22,237 nucleotides of DNA from Candidatus Hermodarchaeota archaeon. Its GTDB lineage: Archaea; Asgardarchaeota; Lokiarchaeia; Sigyniarchaeales; SOKP01. The translations under genes and the position numbers were made by a program. The stretch lies in NCBI GenBank assembly GCA_048885535.1, contig JBHLLO010000048.1, positions 1-22,237 on the forward strand, written 5' to 3'. Positions 1 through 17,666 of this stretch are shown piece after piece; position 1 is the first letter of the stretch; every line of letters starts with the position of its first letter. The notes under the pieces are model-generated. The model made no database searches. It was not told the origin of the DNA and worked only from the letters and a program-made list of their open reading frames with translations.

Positions 1-1004
1 TATACTTTTTTACCATTTGGAAAAGTTATTTCTTCGACATCCTTTCGAATAGGTTTTATCTCTCTAGCATATTCATAAATCTCCTTGGTTGGGATCTCTA
101 TATCGAAATGTCCAAGATTGCCGAGAATAATACCATCTTTCATTTTATCAAACATTTCTTTGGTTGGAGCGATAACATGTTTACATCCAGTAGCGGTTAA
201 TATTATGTCTGCGTAAGGTAAGGTCTTTTCAATTGGCATCACATTATATCCTGCGAATTTTGCTTGTAATGCTTTTATTGAATCTACTTCAGTTATGGTA
301 ACATTTGCTCCTAAACCTTTCGCTCTTAAAGCCATTCCTGAGGAACAGTGCCCAAAACCCGCAATAACTACATTTTTTCCAGCGAATAGGATATGCATTC
401 CATAAATTGCCGATATAATACCTTGACCTGTGCCTAACTCATTATCAAATTGATTTTTACATCTAGCGTCATTAACAGGGAATAAAGGTACTTTCAATAC
501 ACCTTGTTTGTCCATTGCCTTGAACCTCTTTACGCCAGTTGTAGTTTCTTCTTGGCATCCAATAATAATTCCTTTCTCAATTAATTCAGGAAACTCTTTA
601 TGTGCTGTGACAATCATATCTGCTCCATCATCTATTAAAATATTTGGTTTTGCGTTTAAGCACTGCCTTATACACCAATAAAATTCTTCATCTGTATTTC
701 CATGCCATGCAAATACATTAATCCCTTCTTGCACTAATGCTGCTGCTACATCATCTTGGGTTGATAATGGATTACTACCGCATAGGTATACTTCAGCTCC
801 GCCAGCTTTAAGTGTTCTAGCAAGATTACCCGTTTCCTTTGTCACATGCAAACAGCCGGCGATAATAATTCCTTCTAAAGGTTTTTCTCTTTGAAATCTT
901 TCACGAATTACTTTAGCAGTAACAGGCATTTTACTTTCTGCTATGTATAGGGCTTCCATTCCTTGAGCGGCTAAACTTTCATCTGCTACTTTATAATTTA
1001 CCAT
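1..1004 (-). CDS. ahcY: Adenosylhomocysteinase (SAH hydrolase), 3' end runs off the window
   Basis: Not in ORF track; manual translation from ATG at 1004: MVNYKVADESLAAQG...EKPLEGIIIAGCLHVTKETGNL...CGSNPLSTQDDVAAAL...IDDGADMI...GCQEETTTGVKR...PVNDARCKNQFDNELGTGQG...VAGFGHCSSG. These are diagnostic AdoHcyase motifs. Confidence 0.97.
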   Translation of the reverse strand, partial: MVNYKVADESLAAQGMEALYIAESKMPVTAKVIRERFQREKPLEGIIIAGCLHVTKETGNLARTLKAGGAEVYLCGSNPLSTQDDVAAALVQEGINVFAWHGNTDEEFYWCIRQCLNAKPNILIDDGADMIVTAHKEFPELIEKGIIIGCQEETTTGVKRFKAMDKQGVLKVPLFPVNDARCKNQFDNELGTGQGIISAIYGMHILFAGKNVVIAGFGHCSSGMALRAKGLGANVTITEVDSIKALQAKFAGYNVMPIEKTLPYADIILTATGCKHVIAPTKEMFDKMKDGIILGNLGHFDIEIPTKEIYEYAREIKPIRKDVEEITFPNGKKV

Positions 1005-1078
1005 TTTAGTCACTTTTTTTTGAGTATGAATATTAATTTTGATTAATTAATAAACCTTTTTTTGGTTAAATGCAAATA

Positions 1079-1133
1079 TTTATAAGAAGAATTTTACATT
1101 TGATTAATAATGATCACCAAATTTTGTAAAATT
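1079..1133. promoter_or_regulatory. Putative TATA box (TTTATAA 1079-1085) and inverted repeat (AATTTTACA 1090-1098 / TGTAAAATT 1125-1133) in the ahcY / regulator divergent promoter region
   Basis: Motifs read directly; function inferred from position only, and the background is very AT-rich. Confidence 0.3.
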
Positions 1134-1141
1134 GTAAAAAT

Positions 1142-2428
1142 ATGAACATTATTAAGGAAGAGAAAGAAGTCCAAAACTTCGTAAAAAATTTAAATGGAAA
1201 GACAAAGTTCATCGTGACACAAAATTCCCATGCGCTAGGACTTTCTAGACAAACATTTCAGAACAAACTTGATGGTTTGAGAGAACAAAAAATAATCACA
1301 AATTTCACAATAAACATTAATCCAAATATTCAACCCCACAACTTGAAATATGTAATGCTTGAAATTAAGACTAATCCAAAAGAACCTGAGCTGGTTAAGG
1401 AATTATTAAAAATACCCCAATTAAGAATGCTGGATGGAATAATTGGAGATTTTTCTTTATTCTCCCTATTTATCTTTAAATCCCCTGAGGAATATTTTCA
1501 GATATTAAATACTATAGATAATATAATGGCAAAATCATATTTTAAAAAATATCAAATAATTGAAACTATTAAAGTATATAAGACAAATGGAATTAGCCTA
1601 AGAAAATCTAAATTGTCTTATGAAGAAGATCTCATGGATAATTTAAAAGATATGTTTCATAAACATGAGATTGATGAAAGTGAGAAGATTATTGTTAACA
1701 TACCTGAAAAGATTGATTTAGATCAAATTGACCAACAGATTCAGGATATTGAGTATAATCCTAAGAGATTTCCAGGACTTATTATAAAAGTTGAAAATAG
1801 TAGCGTAAAAATTATGATTTTCTCAAATGGTAAAATAATTATTACTGGTTTGAAGAATATAGCAAATAAAAATCAAATAATCAATAAAATAATTGAAAGT
1901 ATAAAAAAAACTGGGATAAAATTAGATAAGGAAAATTTTGAAGAAAATTATGAAATTGATAATATTGATTATATGATTTTAATTATTTTGCGAGATAATC
2001 AAGGTCCTAAACCAATATCCACGTATGAAATAAGAAAAATACTTAAAGATCAATATAATAAAGAAATTTCTCAGTCAACTATTCATAATAGAATAAAAAA
2101 GCTTGAAAAAAATGGAGTCATTTTAAATTATGCGATCAATTTTTGTCCAAAAAAAATCGGTTTTAAAGGAAAATATCTACTCCGGATTAAACCCAAAGAT
2201 CCATCAAAATATAATGAACTCGCCCTTCAACTGGATATGAATAAAAATATTACACATTTATTTAGAATAGGTGAGCAATTTGGTTTATTTGCTATTGTAA
2301 GAGTAAAAAAAATTGAGGAATATGCTAATTTTATTAAGGGTTTATACACTTCAGAAGAAATTGAAGATACGTTTACAAATTTCGTATTAGACGAATTAAT
2401 TCCCTTTAATAATTTTGTATTGTATTGA
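1142..2428 (+). CDS. Tandem Lrp/AsnC-family regulator (HTH-RAM x2) with an inserted single TBP-fold repeat
   Basis: N-terminal HTH (SHALGLSRQTFQNKLDGLREQKIITNFTINI) plus RAM domain (GIIGDFSLF); central TBP repeat (IDLDQI...EYNPKRFPGLIIKV...IMIFSNGKIIITGLK); second HTH (ISQSTIHNRIKKLEKNGVILNYAI) plus RAM domain. Confidence 0.85.
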   Translation: MNIIKEEKEVQNFVKNLNGKTKFIVTQNSHALGLSRQTFQNKLDGLREQKIITNFTININPNIQPHNLKYVMLEIKTNPKEPELVKELLKIPQLRMLDGIIGDFSLFSLFIFKSPEEYFQILNTIDNIMAKSYFKKYQIIETIKVYKTNGISLRKSKLSYEEDLMDNLKDMFHKHEIDESEKIIVNIPEKIDLDQIDQQIQDIEYNPKRFPGLIIKVENSSVKIMIFSNGKIIITGLKNIANKNQIINKIIESIKKTGIKLDKENFEENYEIDNIDYMILIILRDNQGPKPISTYEIRKILKDQYNKEISQSTIHNRIKKLEKNGVILNYAINFCPKKIGFKGKYLLRIKPKDPSKYNELALQLDMNKNITHLFRIGEQFGLFAIVRVKKIEEYANFIKGLYTSEEIEDTFTNFVLDELIPFNNFVLY

Positions 2429-2526
2429 ATTTTCAAAAAGACAAATAAAATTACTTTATCCTTATCCTAATGATAGAAAAAAATATTAATTTAATTACTT
2501 TAGAATCATTTCTTTATTTGTACATT

Positions 2527-4605
2527 ATGAGTCATTTTTATGAGATACTAAATAAAAAGATAGGTTTCTCTAGAATAGGGAGAATCATTTTATCAAAGGA
2601 ATCTAAAAAGTATATCAAGACACCTAATATCATCATTCCCATGCAAAATTTTTTGATGAAGGATGTAAATTATTTAGATGAATTTGAGGATCATGAAATT
2701 TTTATAATATCAAAGGAAGTTTTTCTAAAAATAGGGTTCTTAAGAGATAAATTTAGAAATACAGCTTTTATTTTCACCCATACTGGTACCTTAGATGCAT
2801 TTATAGAAATTTTAGAGAATAACCTTAATGTTTTTTCAAAAGATAATATTATACTTCTCATTCCATTTAATATCCCCACAACTATTATCAATGAAGCTTT
2901 TGCGGGAGATGAGATTGAAAATTACCTTAAACAAGTCAATAATCTACTGAAAAAACATCAAGATTTCAATTTTGGGTTAACTATTAGGAATTTTGATTAT
3001 CCAAGATTATTTGATCTATATAAAAAGTTGATAAAAGAAAATGATAATATTAAATTATTAAATTTAACTGATTTTTTCGATGCTAATATTGATTTTAGGA
3101 AGATTTTGGAAATTATTTTTGATATCAAGCAAAATCTTGATAATAATTTAGTTTTAATGGCTTCAGGACGAATTATCCCTAAATATTTTCCTATTTTAAT
3201 TTATCTTGGTATTGATCTTATTGACAGTTCTTACTTATTATATTTATCTTCCGAAAATTTTTATGATACAATAGAATATTTATATCCTATTTATAAGGTA
3301 AAACATTTTCCATGCTCCTGCCTTGCCTGTAAAGAAAAGTTAAAAAACTTACAAATCATAAAGTATTCAAATGAAAAACTAGAGTATTTATGTTTACATA
3401 ATTTAATAACCGCAAAAAATTATATGAATAAAATAAAACAATACTTGAAAGCAGACGATTTTCGAGCATTTGTAGAAAAATCTTCATTTGATGACATTCT
3501 TGTTGTTTCTATTCTAAAAATATTAGATCGCCAATATTTTCATTTAATTAGGTTTGAAACCCCGATAGCGGATTCTTTTCCAATTATTAGATGTTTTGGA
3601 GCCTCCTCTTATTATAGACCAGACTTTCAACAATTTAGAGAAAGAGTAATCAGATATTTCTTACCTGAAGCATGGACAAAACTGATTATAATTTTTCCTT
3701 GCTCATCAAGAAAACCTTATTCTAAATCAAAATCTCATAAAAAATTCCATAGTATTTTAAGAAAATTTTCAGATTTTCCTGAGTTTCAAGAAATAATTCT
3801 AACTTCTCCCCTCGGTGCTATTCCAAGACAACTTGAAAATATATATCCTGTAAATTCATATGATATATCTGTGACTGGGTTTTGGGATAAAGAAGAGATT
3901 GATTTAGCATCTGAAATGTTAGTAGAAATTCTAAGTAAATATAATAAGGATATTCCAATTATTTGCCATGCAAAAGGTGAGGGATATAAAGAAATTATTT
4001 TAAAAGCTAAATCCCAATTGCCCCATGAATTTTATTTTACAAATACTAATAAAAGTCTTATAAGTTCTAGTTCATTAAAGTCTCTTGAAGACTGTGTTAG
4101 AAACCTTAAAAGCAAACTAAAATTAGAAAGTGAAGAAAAAATACTCTCTTTCTCAAAATCTTGGATCCGAAAACTAATTAAAATTGCGGATTATCAACTT
4201 GGAGCAGATGTGGGTACAAAATTCTTTTCTGAAAACATAAAAGTTAGAAGAAATAAACTTAGTGGAAATTTTCATATTATTGACGTTGAACAAAAAAAAA
4301 TAATTGGCAAATTTTTACTTCATACTGGTCAAATTGAATTTACATTATATGGTGCTCAATCATTATTGGAAATTAATAATAAATCTAATATTTTAGTGTT
4401 TAATGGAGAAACAATAAAAGGAAATACACTTTTTAGGCCAGGAATTATTGAATTTAGTCCCAATCTTATTCCTAATAATTATGTTTTTATATTAGACAAA
4501 ACTAAGAAAAAGGTTATTGGACTTGCAAAATTAATCGTAGGTTCAAATTATTTAAAAAACTCAAAAAGCGGTAGGATTGCTATAGTTTATGATAAAGTCA
4601 GGTAA
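2527..4605 (+). CDS. arcS: Archaeosine synthase subunit alpha (TGT-like barrel, Zn site, C-terminal PUA)
   Basis: TGT-like N-terminus (SRIGRI...KTPNII), CSCLAC...LHN Zn motif, PCSSRKPYSKSKSH and LTSPLGAIPRQLE...YD motifs, PUA-like C-terminus. Start placed at ATG 2527 (MSHFYEIL) rather than 2470. Overlaps raSEA. Confidence 0.9.
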   Translation: MSHFYEILNKKIGFSRIGRIILSKESKKYIKTPNIIIPMQNFLMKDVNYLDEFEDHEIFIISKEVFLKIGFLRDKFRNTAFIFTHTGTLDAFIEILENNLNVFSKDNIILLIPFNIPTTIINEAFAGDEIENYLKQVNNLLKKHQDFNFGLTIRNFDYPRLFDLYKKLIKENDNIKLLNLTDFFDANIDFRKILEIIFDIKQNLDNNLVLMASGRIIPKYFPILIYLGIDLIDSSYLLYLSSENFYDTIEYLYPIYKVKHFPCSCLACKEKLKNLQIIKYSNEKLEYLCLHNLITAKNYMNKIKQYLKADDFRAFVEKSSFDDILVVSILKILDRQYFHLIRFETPIADSFPIIRCFGASSYYRPDFQQFRERVIRYFLPEAWTKLIIIFPCSSRKPYSKSKSHKKFHSILRKFSDFPEFQEIILTSPLGAIPRQLENIYPVNSYDISVTGFWDKEEIDLASEMLVEILSKYNKDIPIICHAKGEGYKEIILKAKSQLPHEFYFTNTNKSLISSSSLKSLEDCVRNLKSKLKLESEEKILSFSKSWIRKLIKIADYQLGADVGTKFFSENIKVRRNKLSGNFHIIDVEQKKIIGKFLLHTGQIEFTLYGAQSLLEINNKSNILVFNGETIKGNTLFRPGIIEFSPNLIPNNYVFILDKTKKKVIGLAKLIVGSNYLKNSKSGRIAIVYDKVR

Positions 4606-5677
4606 AAATTGTTCATTAGTTACTAAATTAAAGGAGTTAAGAAATAAAGCCACTTCAAATAGAAAAAGTTTTACTGAAGAACAATTAAATAAGCCAATTA
4701 CTTTTTGGATAAAAAATGATCGCCTTTTAAATGACCGGGGGAAAGAATTTACGATCATCTTGAGGACGAAAGGTTGTAGCTGGGCTCTTAGTGATAGTGG
4801 AGGATGCTCAATGTGTGGATATATCAATGATTCTAGTTTGAATCAATTAACTGATGAAAATCTCATGAATCAAGTTGATTATGCATTTCAATCAAGTGAA
4901 ATTAGAGCTAAGAAAGATAATTATATACTTAAAATTTTTAATTCTGGAAGTTTCTTTGATGAGAGTGAAATTTCTGAGGAAGTGAGGAATTACATTTATC
5001 AAAAAGTGTTGGGCTGTGATAATATAAAGGAATTTGTCATAGAATCTCGGATTGAGCACATAACAAAGAAAAAAATAGCATCTTTAAAAGAACAATTAAA
5101 TAATAAGTATATTGAATTAGCATTTGGTCTTGAAACAGTTGATGATTATATTAGAAACGTATATATTAATAAAGGAATGCTATTTGAGGATTTTAAAAAA
5201 GTTATAGGAATTACTAAAAATAGTGGAATAGGCGTCAGGACATATTTACTATTTAAACCTCCTTTTTTAAATGAGCAAGGAGCAATAGATGATTGTGTAA
5301 AATCTATTATTACATTAAATAATTTGGGAATAGATACCATATCAATTAACCCATTAAATATTCAAAAAGGGACTCTTGTGGAATATTTATGGTATCAAAA
5401 CCGCTATAGGCCCCCTTGGTTCTATTCTCTATTTAAAAGCTTAAGAAAAGTATATAATTTAAGTAAAAATTTAAAAATTCCTCGAATAATTTCAGATCCT
5501 ACTGGCGCGGGTACTAAAAGAGGGATTCATAATTGTTTAAAAAGAGATTGTAATCAGAAAATGTTAGGTGTTCTCCGAGATTTTGTATTATCCCAAGATT
5601 TCGCGTATCTAAATAACATGGATCGTCAAAATTGTGAGTGCTTATTAAAATATCGCCTTCAAAAAAAATACCATTAA
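4589..5677 (+). CDS. raSEA: Archaeosine biosynthesis radical SAM enzyme RaSEA (TIGR01210-type)
   Basis: ILRTKGCSWALSDSGGCSMCGY extended Cys motif, KIFNSGSFFD, IESR, GLET, YLLFKPPFL, YRPPW; overlaps arcS. Confidence 0.92.
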   Translation: MIKSGKNCSLVTKLKELRNKATSNRKSFTEEQLNKPITFWIKNDRLLNDRGKEFTIILRTKGCSWALSDSGGCSMCGYINDSSLNQLTDENLMNQVDYAFQSSEIRAKKDNYILKIFNSGSFFDESEISEEVRNYIYQKVLGCDNIKEFVIESRIEHITKKKIASLKEQLNNKYIELAFGLETVDDYIRNVYINKGMLFEDFKKVIGITKNSGIGVRTYLLFKPPFLNEQGAIDDCVKSIITLNNLGIDTISINPLNIQKGTLVEYLWYQNRYRPPWFYSLFKSLRKVYNLSKNLKIPRIISDPTGAGTKRGIHNCLKRDCNQKMLGVLRDFVLSQDFAYLNNMDRQNCECLLKYRLQKKYH

Positions 5678-6188: not shown

Positions 6189-7106
6189 ATGAACGATGAT
6201 GCGGAGATTTGTACCGAATGTGGGAAAAACATTGTAAAAAGTGCTGATTCTTTGTTGGTTTGTGAAGAATGTGGTTTGGTTCATTCAGAAAGTCATATTG
6301 ATCGTGGTCCTGAATGGAGAGCATTCGATGCTGATCAAAAGAAAAAAAGAACTCGAACTGGAGCACCTATGACTTACATGATCCATGATAAGGGCTTAAG
6401 TACGATGATTGATTGGAAGAATAGAGATATTTTTGGTAAGGAGATTCCTGCTAAATCGAGGGGCCAAATTTATAGATTACGCAAATGGCAGAGTAGAATA
6501 AGAGTATCAGATGCAACAGAAAGAAATTTAACTTTTGCTTTAAGTGAGTTAGATCGGATGGCTTCTAATTTAGATTTACCTAAAAATCTTCGTGAATGTT
6601 CTGCAAAAATATATCGAGATGCAGTCGATGCCCATCTTATAAGAGGAAGGAGTATTGAGGGTGTGGCTGCTGCTAGTTTATATGCAGCATGTAGAATGTA
6701 TAAAATTCCCAGAACCTTGAATGAGATTGCTGAAGTAGCGCGAGTAGATAAAAAAGAAATCGGTAGATCCTTCCGTTTTATATCAAATGAATTGCTCCTT
6801 AACTTAAATCCAACAAAGCCTCTTGATTTTCTCACAAGATTTATATCTGAACTAAAACTTAGTCAGGAATGCCAAAAAGTAGCGAAAAAAATCATAAAAA
6901 TGGCAGAAGCCTATGGATTAACTTCAGGTAGAGGGCCCACGGGAGTTTGTGCTGCAGCTATATATGCAGCAAGTATATTAACTAAGGAAAGGAGAACTCA
7001 AAGAAAAATAGCAAATATAAGTCAAGTTACCGAGGTTACAGTTAGGAATAGATTTTCAGAATTAATAGAAAATTTAGATTTAGGTATTTCAATGAAAAAG
7101 AAATAA
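6189..7106 (+). CDS. tfb: Transcription initiation factor IIB (TFB)
   Basis: Zn ribbon CTECG...CEECG, B-reader [16 protein letters not shown], two cyclin repeats ([24 protein letters not shown]). May start at the in-frame ATT at 6156. Confidence 0.98.
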
Positions 7107-13014: not shown

Positions 13015-15003
13015 TCATAGATTAAGTGCTTTAAAGAAAGAAGGTAATGAATAGACAATTTCGCAAGTTTCTTTGTTTGTGACTTCAATAATTGCTCGTA
13101 TTAAATATTGTTCCTTTAGTTCGGCTGTTGGATTATAAATCTTTACTTTTGCTGTAGGTTTCAGTTTTAAAGAATAATTTTCAGCAATTCCAGTGAGTTT
13201 TTCCTCAGTTTTTAGAATAACACCTAATAATCCTAACTCATAATGAGACACTACAAAAAGATATTTTATATGATTTTCAAGCTTTTCAAAATGGACAACC
13301 TCTAAATATTCTTCTTGTAGTTCCTTAGGTAATTTATTGAATAGAATTATTTTTTTCTTTCCAGAAATATATGGAAAGGGAGTATAAAATAAAATATTGA
13401 AACTTGAAATTTTTTTTATTTGTTCATTATATTTCTCAACATCCTTTACAGAATAAGCTTTTTCTAACAAAATATCTAATTTATCAACCATCATATCTTC
13501 TGCAGAATATCCGTTCAATACAGTTGCTATATAAGCTCTTTTTAACTTTTCTATTAAGATATCACTTCTTACACTCAATTTATAATCAATGCTAATTTCT
13601 AAAGCTTCGTTATAAAGATTTGCTGCTATTTGTGAATGCCCAAGTGCCAGGAAATAATCACCTAATTCGCTAAAGACAATTATAGCATCTAAAAAGTTTT
13701 TTTCAAAATCTAAATTTGAGACTTCATCCATTATTCCCATTGCGGTTGTTCTTTCTTTCCCTTGAATATAAAGCGCTATAGCTTTACCAATTAGACATTT
13801 TAATTTTAATTTGTCATCTTTATAAATATCTGCGAGTTCTTCTGTAAAGTTGTAAGCCATTAGTGCATTATCATACAATCCATGAAATAAAAGTATTAAA
13901 GCTTTAACATAATTTAATGTTAAGCAAGTTTGATAGTTATGAATAATTGTTGAAAAGAAGGCTGCTCTCTCAAGTGAATCTATTGCCGAATTTATTCTAC
14001 CTAAAGAGACTAAGATAAATGCACGTAAAAATTCCATTTTAGAAATCTCAGAACAAATGAGGGTTTCGATTATTTCATAATCTTTTAATTTAGATAGTTT
14101 TCCCGAGGCTAACTGTAGTAATGATATTAAAAATCCATTTCCTTTTTTCAAAAACTTAGCAGCATCATTTGATTCATTTCTTACGATCGCTTCACGAGTT
14201 CTTTTAAGATATTCTCTTGAAATTTTTAAATTTTCAAGAAAATTTTGAATACCTTGAATTTTTTCCACTTCAGTCGAGGGTAATTTTTGTTCTTCAATAT
14301 ATTTTTCTGCAATTATAATTTCTTTTTGGTGTTTACTTACACCTATTTCAAATCTCATTTGTTCTTCTTCTTTATCAATGAATTGAGCGTCTTGAGTTAT
14401 TATTGAGTCCTGAGTAACATTTATAGCTTTTTCTATTAACCATTGTATTTTCTGTTCAGCTGGGTAAACGTGAGCACGCTCAATCATATAATGGAGTGTA
14501 TAATTTAGACTCTTTCTCCACAAATCCTTGAAATAATTCCTCAGTTGTTTACTTGGTATTGTTCTGTTTATCTTTAGAAGAAAACTTGAAAGGGAAAGAA
14601 TATTAACCTTGTTTTTCATAATTGATGCTGCATTCTTTGCTAATTTAAAATCATCAGTAACTAAATGTATCACAATATCGTCATCTGATAGTCGTTCACT
14701 CAAGGCGATTAAGGATAAATCAGGATCTTGAGCAGGAAATTTTATATTTGATATTTCTAATTCATCCTTTATCATCTGAATTTCAGATTGCAGAACTTTC
14801 TCAACATTTATAAAATCTTTAAACCTATTCTTAAAAGTCTGAGGAGCTTTAACTTCGTTGAAGACTAGATTAGTTATATAATAATTTAAACCTAATTCTT
14901 TCCCTGCAATTTCTAAATTATTTAAAAAGTTTTTGGCTCGAATTGAAATAGCACATATAAAAAAGTTGGCGTCAAAAATTACTTTTTCCTTTGTTTCAAC
15001 CAT
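13015..15003 (-). CDS. PIN-domain putative ribonuclease fused to TPR-like repeats and an unknown C-terminal domain
   Basis: VIFDANFF...VFNEV...QDPDLSLIALS...LVTDDFKL (PIN acidic residues); TPR-like repeats (LGRINSAIDSLERA, GLYDNALMAYN, ELGDYFLALGHSQIAANLYNEALEIS). Confidence 0.75.
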   Translation of the reverse strand: MVETKEKVIFDANFFICAISIRAKNFLNNLEIAGKELGLNYYITNLVFNEVKAPQTFKNRFKDFINVEKVLQSEIQMIKDELEISNIKFPAQDPDLSLIALSERLSDDDIVIHLVTDDFKLAKNAASIMKNKVNILSLSSFLLKINRTIPSKQLRNYFKDLWRKSLNYTLHYMIERAHVYPAEQKIQWLIEKAINVTQDSIITQDAQFIDKEEEQMRFEIGVSKHQKEIIIAEKYIEEQKLPSTEVEKIQGIQNFLENLKISREYLKRTREAIVRNESNDAAKFLKKGNGFLISLLQLASGKLSKLKDYEIIETLICSEISKMEFLRAFILVSLGRINSAIDSLERAAFFSTIIHNYQTCLTLNYVKALILLFHGLYDNALMAYNFTEELADIYKDDKLKLKCLIGKAIALYIQGKERTTAMGIMDEVSNLDFEKNFLDAIIVFSELGDYFLALGHSQIAANLYNEALEISIDYKLSVRSDILIEKLKRAYIATVLNGYSAEDMMVDKLDILLEKAYSVKDVEKYNEQIKKISSFNILFYTPFPYISGKKKIILFNKLPKELQEEYLEVVHFEKLENHIKYLFVVSHYELGLLGVILKTEEKLTGIAENYSLKLKPTAKVKIYNPTAELKEQYLIRAIIEVTNKETCEIVYSLPSFFKALNL

Positions 15004-15725: not shown

Positions 15726-17666
15726 TTATGGTTTATACCAAAAACTTGTAAGTTGACGACAAATTCGTTTAAAATTTTCCTTGACTGTTTTATCTTCTTC
15801 AGAAATTTGATCTAACATATAACCATTTAATATTTCATAGATCTCATTCTTGTCTTTAGGATTTTTGATAAGAGATCTAATTTTAGAAAAAAAGTAATTA
15901 AATGGAGAAATTATCTCTTTTATTAGCCATTCTTCAAATGAGTTTTGGTCTGCAAAAGAAATGAAATTATAAGTTATAACAAATCTAGCAATATCTACAA
16001 AATCATAATAATTTTCACTAGAAAATAATTTTGGTGAGATATCTATCTTGTATGAATGCAAATCTTTAAAGAGATAATCTTTATTCATACTAATAATATA
16101 ATCGGGCCAGACATCATCTGAAACATTTAAATCTTGAAAAATAAATAACTCTAATACCCTTAATGCAATATTTTTTCCTATATATCTACTTCTTGGATCG
16201 ATAAAATTTTTTGAGGCTTGATTAGGATTACCTCTAATAAAAATCTTATCGATTAAAGTATATAGCATACGACATATATGGTCTACTATGATTGTAAAAG
16301 AAAGAGGTTTATTTTCTGGATTTTCTGTAATTACTCTATTCTCTTGTTCAATTAACTTTAAAATTCTTAGGTTTAGACTTCTCAGGAATGTTTTGAAAAA
16401 TTCATAGTTTATATGATTTATTTGTTTGTTAAAAATTTTAAGAAAAAATAAATCAAAGTTATCAAAGTTGGAAATTGTGGAGAAAAAATCAAGAAAACCT
16501 TGAATATCTTTAATAGTAGATGCATTAATGACATTTTTTATATCTTTATTATACTCATTTAAGTTCTTTTTAAATTCTTCTGGCAAAAATAATAAATCAC
16601 CAACCTCAAAAGCTTCTAAATTTCCACTTCCAAAATAATATTTCATATATAGTAGAAATAAATTAAATTGAGATTTTGGTGATGGTAAGTTATTTGCTTG
16701 AAAGGTGGAATATAAGGTGGATTTCTTATCAATAAAATCAAAGATTTTTATGAGTGAATTTTTCTTTTCTTCAGTATAATTAAAATTTGATAGAAAATCT
16801 CTTTTAATAATATCAATCTTCGAATAAACAGAATCCTCAACACGAGCACAAACGAAATTAAAGAAATCTAATAACGGAGAGAAATTTTGTAATAAATTAC
16901 ATTTCTTATAAAAATAATACAATAAATCTACTAATTTTTCTTTTGCAAAAGGGTATTCATCTAGTGCAATTTGATATAATCTCTCTCTTCCTATTAATAA
17001 TTTAGCATAGTATTCTTCTGGGATTCCCTTATAATGCTTGAGAAAGTAATAAAGAAACATGAAATAATAACTCTCAAACATCTCATCGTTACTATTTTTA
17101 ATCACAATTAGGAAATTAATAGTGCTATTTTTTCCACTTTCTTTTATCACAGCCCCATCTAGAATTATATGGAATTTTTCATTCAATAATTTTCTTAAGA
17201 CAGCACCTAATATTGAAACAATTAAATAGATATATCCAAAAGGAGATGTTACTCCATTAATGTGATTGTTTACTTTCCGTTTTAATTCATCAAAACATTG
17301 TAACTCTTCATTTGATAGATGATAATTATATTCCAAAAATACACTGTCTTCCGAGATTTTTTCTTTACTAATCAATTCTATAGAATTGATGTCGAGACCG
17401 CAAAAGCTTTTTAAAAAATAGATAAAATAATCATGAAATTTCTGATAAAGAAAAGTTCCATAGGTTTTGGTAATTACTCTTCTTTGATTCTTTATTCTGA
17501 ATTCTTCCCATTCAGATATTATCTTTAGTTTAAAATTATTAAATATAACTTTATTTTTCTTTAAGATATCAAAAAAGATATTCGAATTGATTTTAAGAGT
17601 AAATCTTTCTCCCTTAAAATTATCTCCAATTAATTCTAAAATGGTATTTAATTCAGGTTTTTCCAA
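15726..17666 (-). CDS. Hypothetical protein (646 aa, mostly helical, no recognised family)
   Basis: Long ORF with genome-typical composition; TTG start; no motif recognised. Confidence 0.8.
   Translation of the reverse strand: MEKPELNTILELIGDNFKGERFTLKINSNIFFDILKKNKVIFNNFKLKIISEWEEFRIKNQRRVITKTYGTFLYQKFHDYFIYFLKSFCGLDINSIELISKEKISEDSVFLEYNYHLSNEELQCFDELKRKVNNHINGVTSPFGYIYLIVSILGAVLRKLLNEKFHIILDGAVIKESGKNSTINFLIVIKNSNDEMFESYYFMFLYYFLKHYKGIPEEYYAKLLIGRERLYQIALDEYPFAKEKLVDLLYYFYKKCNLLQNFSPLLDFFNFVCARVEDSVYSKIDIIKRDFLSNFNYTEEKKNSLIKIFDFIDKKSTLYSTFQANNLPSPKSQFNLFLLYMKYYFGSGNLEAFEVGDLLFLPEEFKKNLNEYNKDIKNVINASTIKDIQGFLDFFSTISNFDNFDLFFLKIFNKQINHINYEFFKTFLRSLNLRILKLIEQENRVITENPENKPLSFTIIVDHICRMLYTLIDKIFIRGNPNQASKNFIDPRSRYIGKNIALRVLELFIFQDLNVSDDVWPDYIISMNKDYLFKDLHSYKIDISPKLFSSENYYDFVDIARFVITYNFISFADQNSFEEWLIKEIISPFNYFFSKIRSLIKNPKDKNEIYEILNGYMLDQISEEDKTVKENFKRICRQLTSFWYKP

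Follow-up and report, generated by a model that had tools for sequence, protein, structure and literature searches.

How does half of a basal transcription factor come to sit inside a gene-specific regulator, and what might it do there? The question is raised by a gene at positions 1142..2428 (+) of a 22,237-nt stretch of DNA (contig JBHLLO010000048.1 of assembly GCA_048885535.1, Candidatus Hermodarchaeota archaeon), the whole of which is referred to below as the window. Its product is predicted to be a tandem Lrp/AsnC regulator in which a single repeat of the TATA-binding protein (TBP) separates two modules, each made of a winged helix-turn-helix (HTH) and a RAM domain. By its domain content, it joins a specific to a general transcription factor, a combination rarely found in nature. 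We hold the identity of this fusion and its evolutionary history with high confidence; what the captured half-TBP might do at the promoters shared with the neighboring ahcY gene is proposed far more tentatively.

One TBP repeat between two Lrp/AsnC modules

The open reading frame (ORF) is intact, starts with ATG, encodes 428 aa and ends with a stop codon at 2426-2428. It can be divided as follows.

1142..2428 (+), whole gene: 428-aa tandem Lrp/AsnC regulator with TBP-repeat insert, the sole copy in the genome
1142..1606 (+), N module, aa 1-155: winged HTH and RAM, by PDB profile match and homology to the C module
1607..1681 (+), pre-linker, aa 156-180: acidic and variable, 44% mean pairwise identity
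1682..1927 (+), TBP repeat, aa 181-262: second half of strand S1, H1, S2-S5 and H2, with F210 and F227; PF00352, 67-70 bits
1928..1951 (+), post-linker, aa 263-270: short, 38% mean pairwise identity
1952..2425 (+), C module, aa 271-428: winged HTH and RAM, by PF01037, HTH_24 and FL11 matches

In the full-length protein, PF00352 matches a single stretch (67.3 bits against a cut-off of 22.9, E 1.1e-18, aa 185-256, nt 1694-1909, profile positions 11-84 of 85), and the insert scanned by itself reaches 70.0 bits. The insert also matches the TBPs of PDB entries 2z8u, 1pcz, 1mp9 and 1ais (E 5e-26 to 5e-24), and a six-frame scan of the genome returns it as the third TBP-repeat match, besides the two repeats of the canonical TBP. 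One of the two tandem repeats that define TBP is thus absent from the protein, which scores below the cut-offs of the NCBIfam TBP equivalogs (42.6-65.7 bits versus 181-347).

As for the flanks, the C-terminal 161 aa alone match PF01037 (28.4 bits, cut-off 25), HTH_24 (24.9 bits, cut-off 21.9) and, in a PDB search, FL11 (E 1e-10). The N-terminal 157 aa scanned alone gave no match in Pfam; in the full-length scan they contain a second PF01037 stretch, the N module is homologous to the C module (BLASTP E 1e-6, 32% over 91 aa), and a profile built from 20 N modules matches FL11 (2cyy, E 3.3e-14), LrpA (5e-10) and AsnC (3.7e-8) in the PDB, the FL11 match covering about residues 6-127, i.e., both HTH and RAM. 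Each module hence aligns over HTH and RAM with the known Lrp/FFRP structures FL11/PH1519 (2cyy, 1ri7, 2e1c), LrpA (1i1g) and E. coli AsnC (2cg4). An ESM Atlas search returned generic Lrp clusters alone, at 0.78. Siroheme decarboxylase AhbA/AhbB was considered and rejected, the respective NCBIfam equivalogs giving 21.5 and 20.5 bits versus cut-offs of 125 and 140.

Because Pfam, module homology and Lrp structure matches agree, the order HTH-RAM / TBP repeat / HTH-RAM proposed in an initial annotation of the window is correct. The reading frame and the peptide quoted there are both found in the translated sequence, its claim of one TBP repeat rather than two is borne out, and the PF00352 search that it suggested for the insert is significant. 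Known Lrp/FFRP proteins are monomers of ~15 kDa that dimerise non-covalently, whereas here two unlike modules lie in one 428-aa chain with a foreign domain between them; the predicted protein is, in other words, a single-chain "covalent Lrp dimer" with a TBP repeat between its two modules.

Authenticity and distribution of the fusion

The initial annotation had named an assembly chimera among the findings that would undo it. Contigs from four DNA runs, which belong to a single study and may be the window's source sample, span both domain junctions with 0-3 mismatches and without joints or indels; together with the independent assemblies, they exclude chance or a chimera. The same architecture recurs in 16 further species genomes, which are independent assemblies, and in 92 of 119 database relatives (absent in 27/119), a set drawn from NCBI, JGI, ENA and Logan after removal of a duplicate (P0002) and a fragment (P0044) from 121 proteins. 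In their sources these are annotated as "Lrp/AsnC ligand binding domain-containing protein" or "hypothetical protein", and the metagenome-assembled genomes carry labels as diverse as Lokiarchaeota/Lokiarchaeia, Promethearchaeota, and Thor-, Heimdall- and Hermodarchaeota.

A homologue search of 301 genomes of the phylum (E <= 1e-20) gave strong matches in a single Lokiarchaeial (Promethearchaeota) family, hereafter f1, where 65 of the 68 other genomes were positive (one of these via TBP alone, another with the gene split across two contig ends); relatives with 31-41% identity occur in three other families. The window was compared with 63 f1 loci and with 8 outgroup loci from three more distant families. 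The insert form, of 410-440 aa, is found in the window and at 16 of these loci, i.e., in 17 of 64 fetched family genomes, and the other 47 f1 loci encode an insert-less form of 286-365 aa, mostly 311-330. No genome among those searched carries both forms, and each, the window's own included, has one copy.

The gene for S-adenosyl-L-homocysteine hydrolase, ahcY, is the divergent neighbor at 61/63 f1 loci, both misses being contig ends, and also at 8/8 outgroup loci; a homologue of arcS, the archaeosine synthase gene, follows downstream on the same strand at 56/63 f1 loci. These shared neighbors make the insert-bearing and insert-less forms positional orthologues, of the kind that the initial annotation had suggested might exist beside ahcY, and the persistence of synteny in both f1 and the outgroups ties the regulator to ahcY over a wide evolutionary span. 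The insert-less tandem Lrp/AsnC proteins (e.g., P0086, P0107, P0108) occupy the same locus, divergent from ahcY and upstream of arcS, and share 70-81% identity in the flanks with the window protein as well as identical, invariant recognition helices. They differ from it in lacking the ~110 aa of acidic linker and TBP repeat, their own linker comprising only a few residues. In the alignment, the inter-module junction measures 37-39 aa in the 44 insert-less f1 forms outside the clade described below, and the insert adds ~82-114 aa precisely at this inter-module linker.

Origin and history of the insert

When only the flanks are used for tree building (72 sequences, 316 columns, outgroup-rooted; FastTree and IQ-TREE -fast), all 17 insert forms group in one 20-tip clade (0.995 in FastTree, SH-aLRT 97.8 in IQ-TREE). 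Because this single clade also holds three insert-less tips whose junctions, at 35-36 aa, are 1-3 aa shorter than the ancestral type, the tree topology is consistent with a single gain of the insert followed by two or more imprecise losses.

Several comparisons bear on where the insert came from. Against the genome's own TBP, it is 40% identical to the N repeat (E 2.7e-21) and 30% identical to the C repeat (E 2.1e-6), and its mean identity is 48% to family N repeats versus 28% to C repeats. When the 17 inserts are placed in a tree with the 98 repeats of 49 TBPs from the phylum, they are monophyletic (0.978) and fall among f1 N repeats, which remains the case (0.908) after the addition of nine more f1/f2 TBPs, mostly paralogues. 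With these paralogues in the tree, the nearest neighbor of the inserts is one fast-evolving paralogue repeat, with a weak support of 0.83. A TBP paralogue was rejected as the source, the inserts still lying among the f1 N repeats. Constraining the captured domains to the family N repeats gives a tree 4.2 log-likelihood (lnL) units better than the free tree (p-AU 0.58, approximately unbiased, AU, test). Placement with the C repeats is 26.4 lnL worse but is not formally rejected by the AU test (p-AU 0.125), a point that weighs against an N-repeat origin. These trees and identities make the insert a derivative of the N repeat of TBP from this very lineage.

Alignment to TBP further shows that the captured piece starts inside strand S1: the PF00352 match begins at profile position 11, versus 1-3 for the canonical repeats listed, and the first half of S1 is missing from the insert. 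Its place, and that of part of TBP's acidic N-terminal tail, is occupied by the pre-linker, ~25 aa of which are absent in one subclade (L020-L024). The canonical TBP of the genome (224 aa, L001:1132-1806, contig C106) itself has a very acidic N-terminal tail of ~35 residues, and TBPs of the family are 79-98% identical to it.

Trees of arcS and ahcY, which are single-gene FastTree analyses and should be taken as a lead and not as a result, do not recover the 20-tip clade, its members spanning 41/52 and 51/56 tips, respectively; the arcS tree follows genus labels, with insert-bearing and insert-less species interleaved. Since the regulator tree groups two genera and the neighbor-gene trees do not, this suggests that the insert allele was exchanged between the two genera by homologous replacement, or else is an old shared polymorphism.

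Selection and residue conservation

Mean pairwise identities among the 17 insert genes, and ratios of nonsynonymous to synonymous substitution rates (dN/dS) over 89 of their 136 pairs (47 failing the dS filter), are as follows.

N module: mean pairwise identity 81%, median dN/dS 0.091
TBP insert: mean pairwise identity 51%, median dN/dS 0.354 (range 0.129-0.857)
C module: mean pairwise identity 77%, median dN/dS 0.125

The insert thus evolves 3-4 times faster than its flanks, and its 51% identity contrasts with the 92-95% found among TBP repeats of the family. Nonetheless, its dN/dS is below 1 in 89/89 pairs, and neither the 17 species genomes nor the 92 database forms show a break in its reading frame. 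Because dN/dS is low, yet above that of the flanks, the insert is kept by selection, more loosely than either of its parents; on these ratios, selection on it is purifying but relaxed.

Which residues are kept was assessed on 88 insert-bearing sequences. The set of DNA contacts comprised the equivalents of R98, F99, P/A101, R105, L114, F116, K120, V122 and T124 of yeast TBP; R98, R105 and K120 we take to be contacts, and the start residue of the 1ytb chain is likewise our assumption. As a check of the mapping, F210 and F227 of the window protein fall on yeast F99 and F116. The remaining yeast contacts are those given in PMC12529657, and positions were transferred through the alignment of the insert to TBPs of the PDB. 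Group conservation of the S2-S5 contact equivalents is 0.91, versus 0.95 for the buried core, and is lower at exposed H2 positions (0.54) and in the stirrup loop (0.58). Positions 209, 216 and 231 are basic in 86, 74 and 80 of the 88 sequences, as expected for contacts with DNA phosphates. The two intercalating phenylalanines that characterize TBP, and that the initial annotation described as retained, are both present in the window protein; across the orthologues this holds for F210 (88/88) and only in part for F227 (75/88).

Like canonical archaeal TBPs (1pcz and 1ais from P. woesei, 2z8u, 1mp9) and the genome's own, the insert carries the FPG and IFS-G motifs and most S2-S5 contacts; it differs from them in consisting of one repeat and not two, in having lost the first half of S1, in reaching 65.7 bits where the NCBIfam TBP equivalog requires 270, and in its lower pairwise identity.

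On the above evidence, the fusion is young and belongs to one lineage. The initial annotation had seen in it a bearing on how specific and basal factors became coupled in the relatives of eukaryotes, and this was not borne out: being young, patchy (17/64 genomes), lost at least twice and fast-evolving, the fusion says little about any deep coupling of this kind in the ancestors of eukaryotes.

The control region shared with ahcY

The regulator gene is separated from ahcY by a short divergent region and is followed by two archaeosine genes.

3..1004 (-), ahcY, S-adenosyl-L-homocysteine hydrolase: AdoHcyase 166 bits, AdoHcyase_NAD 124 bits (Pfam)
1005..1141 (no strand), divergent control region of ahcY and the regulator: 137 bp, strongly conserved across 20 insert-clade loci
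1028..1047 (+), copy 1 of a 20-nt direct repeat, ahcY-proximal: candidate operator, found by repeat search, in a conserved block
1055..1077 (+), central conserved block: CC-T7-GG followed by TTAAATGCAAAT, between two putative back-to-back promoters
1089..1108 (+), copy 2 of the 20-nt direct repeat, regulator-proximal: candidate operator, 85% identical to copy 1
2470..4605 (+), ArcS-like archaeosine synthase (TGT and DUF5591): DUF5591 148 bits, TGT 44 bits, probably co-transcribed with the regulator
4589..5677 (+), radical-SAM archaeosine protein RaSEA: TIGR01210 333.9 bits, cut-off 212

The ahcY gene extends beyond the window start; its likely start codon is the ATG at 1004-1002, read as a conserved CAT anchor. 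Within the control region, the 8-mer TTAATTAA is found at 39 of 59 family loci versus 9.5 expected from shuffles, and the 8-mer TTTTTGGT at 20 of 59 versus 0.3 expected. Copy 1 of the direct repeat overlaps a TATA-like AT palindrome and copy 2 a TATA-like element; the two copies are spaced 61 nt apart, one on each side of the central block. ACATTTAA and ACAATTAA, which are alternatives within copy 2, occur at 20 and 18 of the 59 family loci, respectively, versus ~1.7 expected. The layout would thus be that of two back-to-back promoters, with the repeats overlapping their TATA-like elements.

A direct repeat with 61-nt spacing suits a protein with two unlike HTHs, and the recognition helices of the two modules indeed differ from each other, each being nearly invariant across f1. 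The 19-mer at 1059-1077 has a single site in the 3.09-Mb genome at <=2 mismatches, and a search of the genome with the three conserved boxes for a wider regulon returned no convincing second site. No RNA datasets covering positions 900-2600 of the window were listed.

A proposed role for the half-saddle

These data can be brought together as follows. The regulator would exert a local, small-molecule-responsive control over ahcY and over its own arcS-raSEA operon, its two different recognition helices binding the 137-bp control region; such a local role fits the genome-unique, conserved 19-mer found there. In one sub-lineage, a copy of the TBP N repeat, with a remnant of the acidic tail and without the first half of S1, entered the inter-module linker. 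Tethered in this way, the half-saddle could make an extra minor-groove contact of the TATA type in cis, on one of the two A/T-rich promoters, which may sharpen or strengthen occupancy and compete with or obstruct the cell's TBP. The outcome would be a modulation of autoregulation and of ahcY control, without nucleation of a pre-initiation complex. For a half-saddle with a conserved underside, the contact in cis is the most economical role, and one that the monopartite TBP-like N-domain plays for its enzyme in RNase H3 (PMC4132731). That the half-saddle binds DNA is inferred, and so are the promoter it targets, the ligand and whether regulation is positive or negative. As a whole, including its mechanism, this explanation stands slightly short of an even chance in our estimation, and the minor-groove contact in cis, considered on its own, is to be taken as a working proposal held with somewhat more reserve.

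A number of observations weigh against it. S1 is the central strand of TBP at the two-fold axis and carries Asn/Val contacts to DNA. The equivalents of these residues, Asn69/Val71, are poorly conserved in the insert (0.46) and are S180/K182 in the window protein, where S1 is not complete. F227 is replaced in 13/88 sequences, and the residue at T235 is Thr in only 31/88. Position 186 is Glu in 49/88 orthologues, and aa 156-187 are acidic with a median net charge of -3; an acidic S1 and linker might interfere with binding to DNA or serve as an autoinhibitory mimic. The insert is also dispensable, as seen from the three insert-less tips nested in the insert clade. The control region is ~76% A+T, and because TATA-like words are common in such DNA, the promoter reading is no test of the proposal. 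Lastly, a conserved hydrophobic underside would fit a protein partner too.

Alternative explanations

This last point leads to the alternative of a protein-contact module, in which the underside would bind the cell's TBP (much as TBP pairs with itself in TBP-TBP dimers), TFB or the protein's own acidic pre-linker, and would recruit, sequester or hand over a basal factor at the promoters of the ahcY locus. Archaeal Lrp activators are described as contacting TBP directly (PMC2995911), and the TBP-fold serves as a protein-binding platform in the adaptin and COPG appendages (PMC3597702, PMC11188069). Conservation of the underside coincides with frequent acidic residues in and around S1, and a TFB gene lies 4.9 kb downstream, though in insert-less loci as well. 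The conserved set is however exactly the DNA-contact set of TBP, the basic residues 209, 216 and 231 included, and gene linkage points to no partner specific to the insert form. We consider this alternative unlikely, if still deserving of attention.

The initial annotation had proposed that dimerisation rebuilds a TBP-like saddle and yields a ligand-gated "private TBP", i.e., an oligomer in which two half-TBPs pair, bend TATA and recruit TFB and RNA polymerase at particular promoters. In its favor, proteins of the Lrp family form tetramers to octamers via their RAM cores (PMC2995911), monopartite TBP-domain proteins exist in some archaea (PMC3597702), the S2-S5 underside residues are conserved, and position 208, the equivalent of yeast E188 shifted to the N lobe, is Glu in 52/88 orthologues. 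It is Lys in the window protein, however, and the stirrup loop is poorly conserved. In TBP, the two repeats pair at the dyad through the first half of S1; this half is precisely what the insert has not retained, its profile match starting at position 11 and not at 1-3, and the S1 contacts are not conserved either. The insert moreover stems from the N repeat, whereas the TFIIB contacts E184/E188 are in the C lobe, beside F190 (PMC12529657). In addition, a canonical TBP, 92-95% identical across the family, is kept in every family genome checked, and the insert was lost at least twice. A complex prediction for two copies of aa 172-270 (85-row alignment; score 0.02, mark 0.42) is evidence neither way. 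Since the insert lacks the first half of S1, stems from an N repeat and can be dispensed with, a rebuilt, TFB-recruiting saddle is disfavored; it appears doubtful, less likely than a contact of the half-saddle in cis, and altogether improbable.

Could the insert instead be a passenger, captured by accident in a tolerant linker, with little or no function and decaying slowly? Its dN/dS (median 0.354 versus 0.091 and 0.125 in the flanks), its pairwise identity (51% versus 77-81%), its repeated loss and the already degraded S1 would all agree with this. They are to be set against the dN/dS below 1 in all 89 pairs, the frame kept open in 17 species genomes and 92 database forms, and the conservation of solvent-exposed contact positions to the same degree as the core; the grouping of two genera by the insert allele against the arcS tree also suggests spread or maintenance of this allele. 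A mere passenger is, on balance, very unlikely.

Finally, an assembly or gene-calling chimera of a TBP fragment and two Lrp genes, for which nothing speaks except the origin of the window in a metagenome-type assembly (112 contigs), is refuted since independent assemblies share the architecture, with both junctions bridged, a continuous frame and a conserved gene position.

Known systems and significance

Passages of PMC2995911 describe Lrp dimers as binding 13-17-bp sites with A/T-rich centers, and archaeal Lrp regulators as acting beside TATA/BRE elements, by contact with TBP or by blocking polymerase. By likeness to archaeal Lrp/FFRP proteins (also Ptr2 and Ss-LrpB), A/T-centered sites near TATA/BRE and a response to small ligands would be expected here as well (PMC2995911). 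The idea of a Rosetta-stone fusion, put forward in the initial annotation for this ligand-sensing regulator and basal factor, fits the known contact between an archaeal Lrp activator and TBP (PMC2995911).

Single TBP-like domains have been reported elsewhere. In RNase H3, a monopartite TBP-like N-domain lays its exposed sheet across the minor groove and is, like the repeat of the window protein, tethered to another nucleic-acid-binding unit (PMC4132731); it differs in being bacterial, distant in sequence, three-stranded in its sheet, specific for RNA/DNA hybrids and attached to a nuclease. Brindefalk et al. (2013) described monopartite TBPs such as halobacterial TbpA, and a protein combining a winged helix with a TBP domain, Q8TJ64_METAC (PMC3597702). 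These resemble the window protein in having a single TBP domain, beside a DNA-binding domain or alone, but Q8TJ64_METAC, compared here by description only, was reported as an isolated case whose TBP domain is divergent and for which full-length homologues are lacking (PMC3597702). The passages of Brindefalk et al. (2013) drawn on here make no mention of an Lrp/AsnC partner of the TBP domain (PMC3597702). Literature searches combining TBP-domain with Lrp/AsnC or Asgard names, which covered papers without their supplementary tables, found no description of an Lrp-TBP fusion, in agreement with the initial annotation, which knew of none; among the matches listed, no paper has PF00352 together with PF01037. 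Precomputed Pfam lists in databases already show PF01037 and PF00352 on relatives of the window protein, so that the architecture has been catalogued automatically but left undiscussed.

The gene is of interest in that archaea, in controlling their genes, combine regulators of bacterial type with a basal machinery of eukaryotic type, and direct contact between Lrp and TBP is among the few known mechanisms at this junction. Here a single chain contains both partners, and it does so in relatives of the eukaryotic ancestor; since the fusion is young and confined to one lineage, it is best regarded as a model for domain capture and not as a relic of the origin of eukaryotic transcription. It comes with built-in controls, namely closely related orthologues that lack the insert but occupy the same locus, cases in which the insert was secondarily lost, and a second half-TBP family (see below), and thereby makes several questions testable: how a single TBP repeat behaves on DNA, whether a half-saddle competes with TBP, and how a domain enters a conserved regulator. 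In addition, the locus suggests that Lokiarchaeia have a regulator devoted to the methyl cycle (ahcY).

Neighboring genes

At 711 aa, the ArcS-like protein is long, and its 303 bits with the NCBIfam ArcS model fall short of the cut-off of 440; the end of its gene is overlapped by the start of raSEA by 17 nt. Further downstream, at 6189-7106 (+), lies a TFB gene (NCBIfam 456.6 bits, cut-off 384), 4.9 kb beyond the regulator start. A TFB homologue is found at an equal distance in at least 18/63 family loci, insert-bearing and insert-less alike, a count that is a lower bound because the fetched flanks were too short at the remaining loci. Two long ORFs, at 13015-15003 (-) and 15726-17666 (-), encode 662 and 646 aa, respectively, and match no NCBIfam model at E <= 1e-8.

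A second half-TBP family and other unusual TBPs

A cluster search with the insert against 1.84 billion representatives returned mostly canonical TBPs, and also led to a second half-TBP family (P0247 and relatives), built on a Promethearchaeota protein of ~225 aa. This ~225-aa protein has no relative in Pfam or the PDB, and its N domain returned only unnamed clusters from the ESM Atlas. PF00352 is present in 58 of its best 120 relatives and absent in 62; in the 55 full-length fusions (316-324 aa), the TBP repeat forms a C-terminal tail. As in the Lrp insert, the start of S1 is missing, and the TBP part is closer to the N repeat (52%) than to the C repeat (27%). The window genome holds a TBP-less form of this family (L140:1531-2238 (-), contig C29), and the fusion itself is present in 3/71 family genomes, none of them with the Lrp insert. 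A heterodimer of the two half-TBP fusions was rejected on the grounds that 0/12 sampled Lrp-insert genomes carry the second fusion. As to whether there were one or two captures, FastTree separates the two fusion families and a quick IQ-TREE run joins them (SH-aLRT 81.9).

A broader possibility would be that the half-TBP is a portable regulatory module captured by at least two unrelated hosts and that, tethered to an oligomerising, ligand-sensing Lrp scaffold, two halves paired on DNA could act as a ligand-gated, promoter-specific TATA binder, be it as a competitor of TBP or as a private TBP. We rate this as quite unlikely; were it true, paired half-TBPs on an Lrp scaffold would represent a natural intermediate between monopartite and bipartite TBP.

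The cluster search with the insert also returned other unusual database proteins. One (P0229, 503 aa) is a single-chain TFB, with Zn ribbon and two cyclin repeats, fused to a two-repeat TBP, and another (P0122, 376 aa) is a TBP with four repeats. In addition, a 147-aa ORF (L137; genome G041, contig C6) from a different family of the phylum has one TBP repeat followed by a broken second one, perhaps a TBP paralogue that was truncated or suffered a frameshift.

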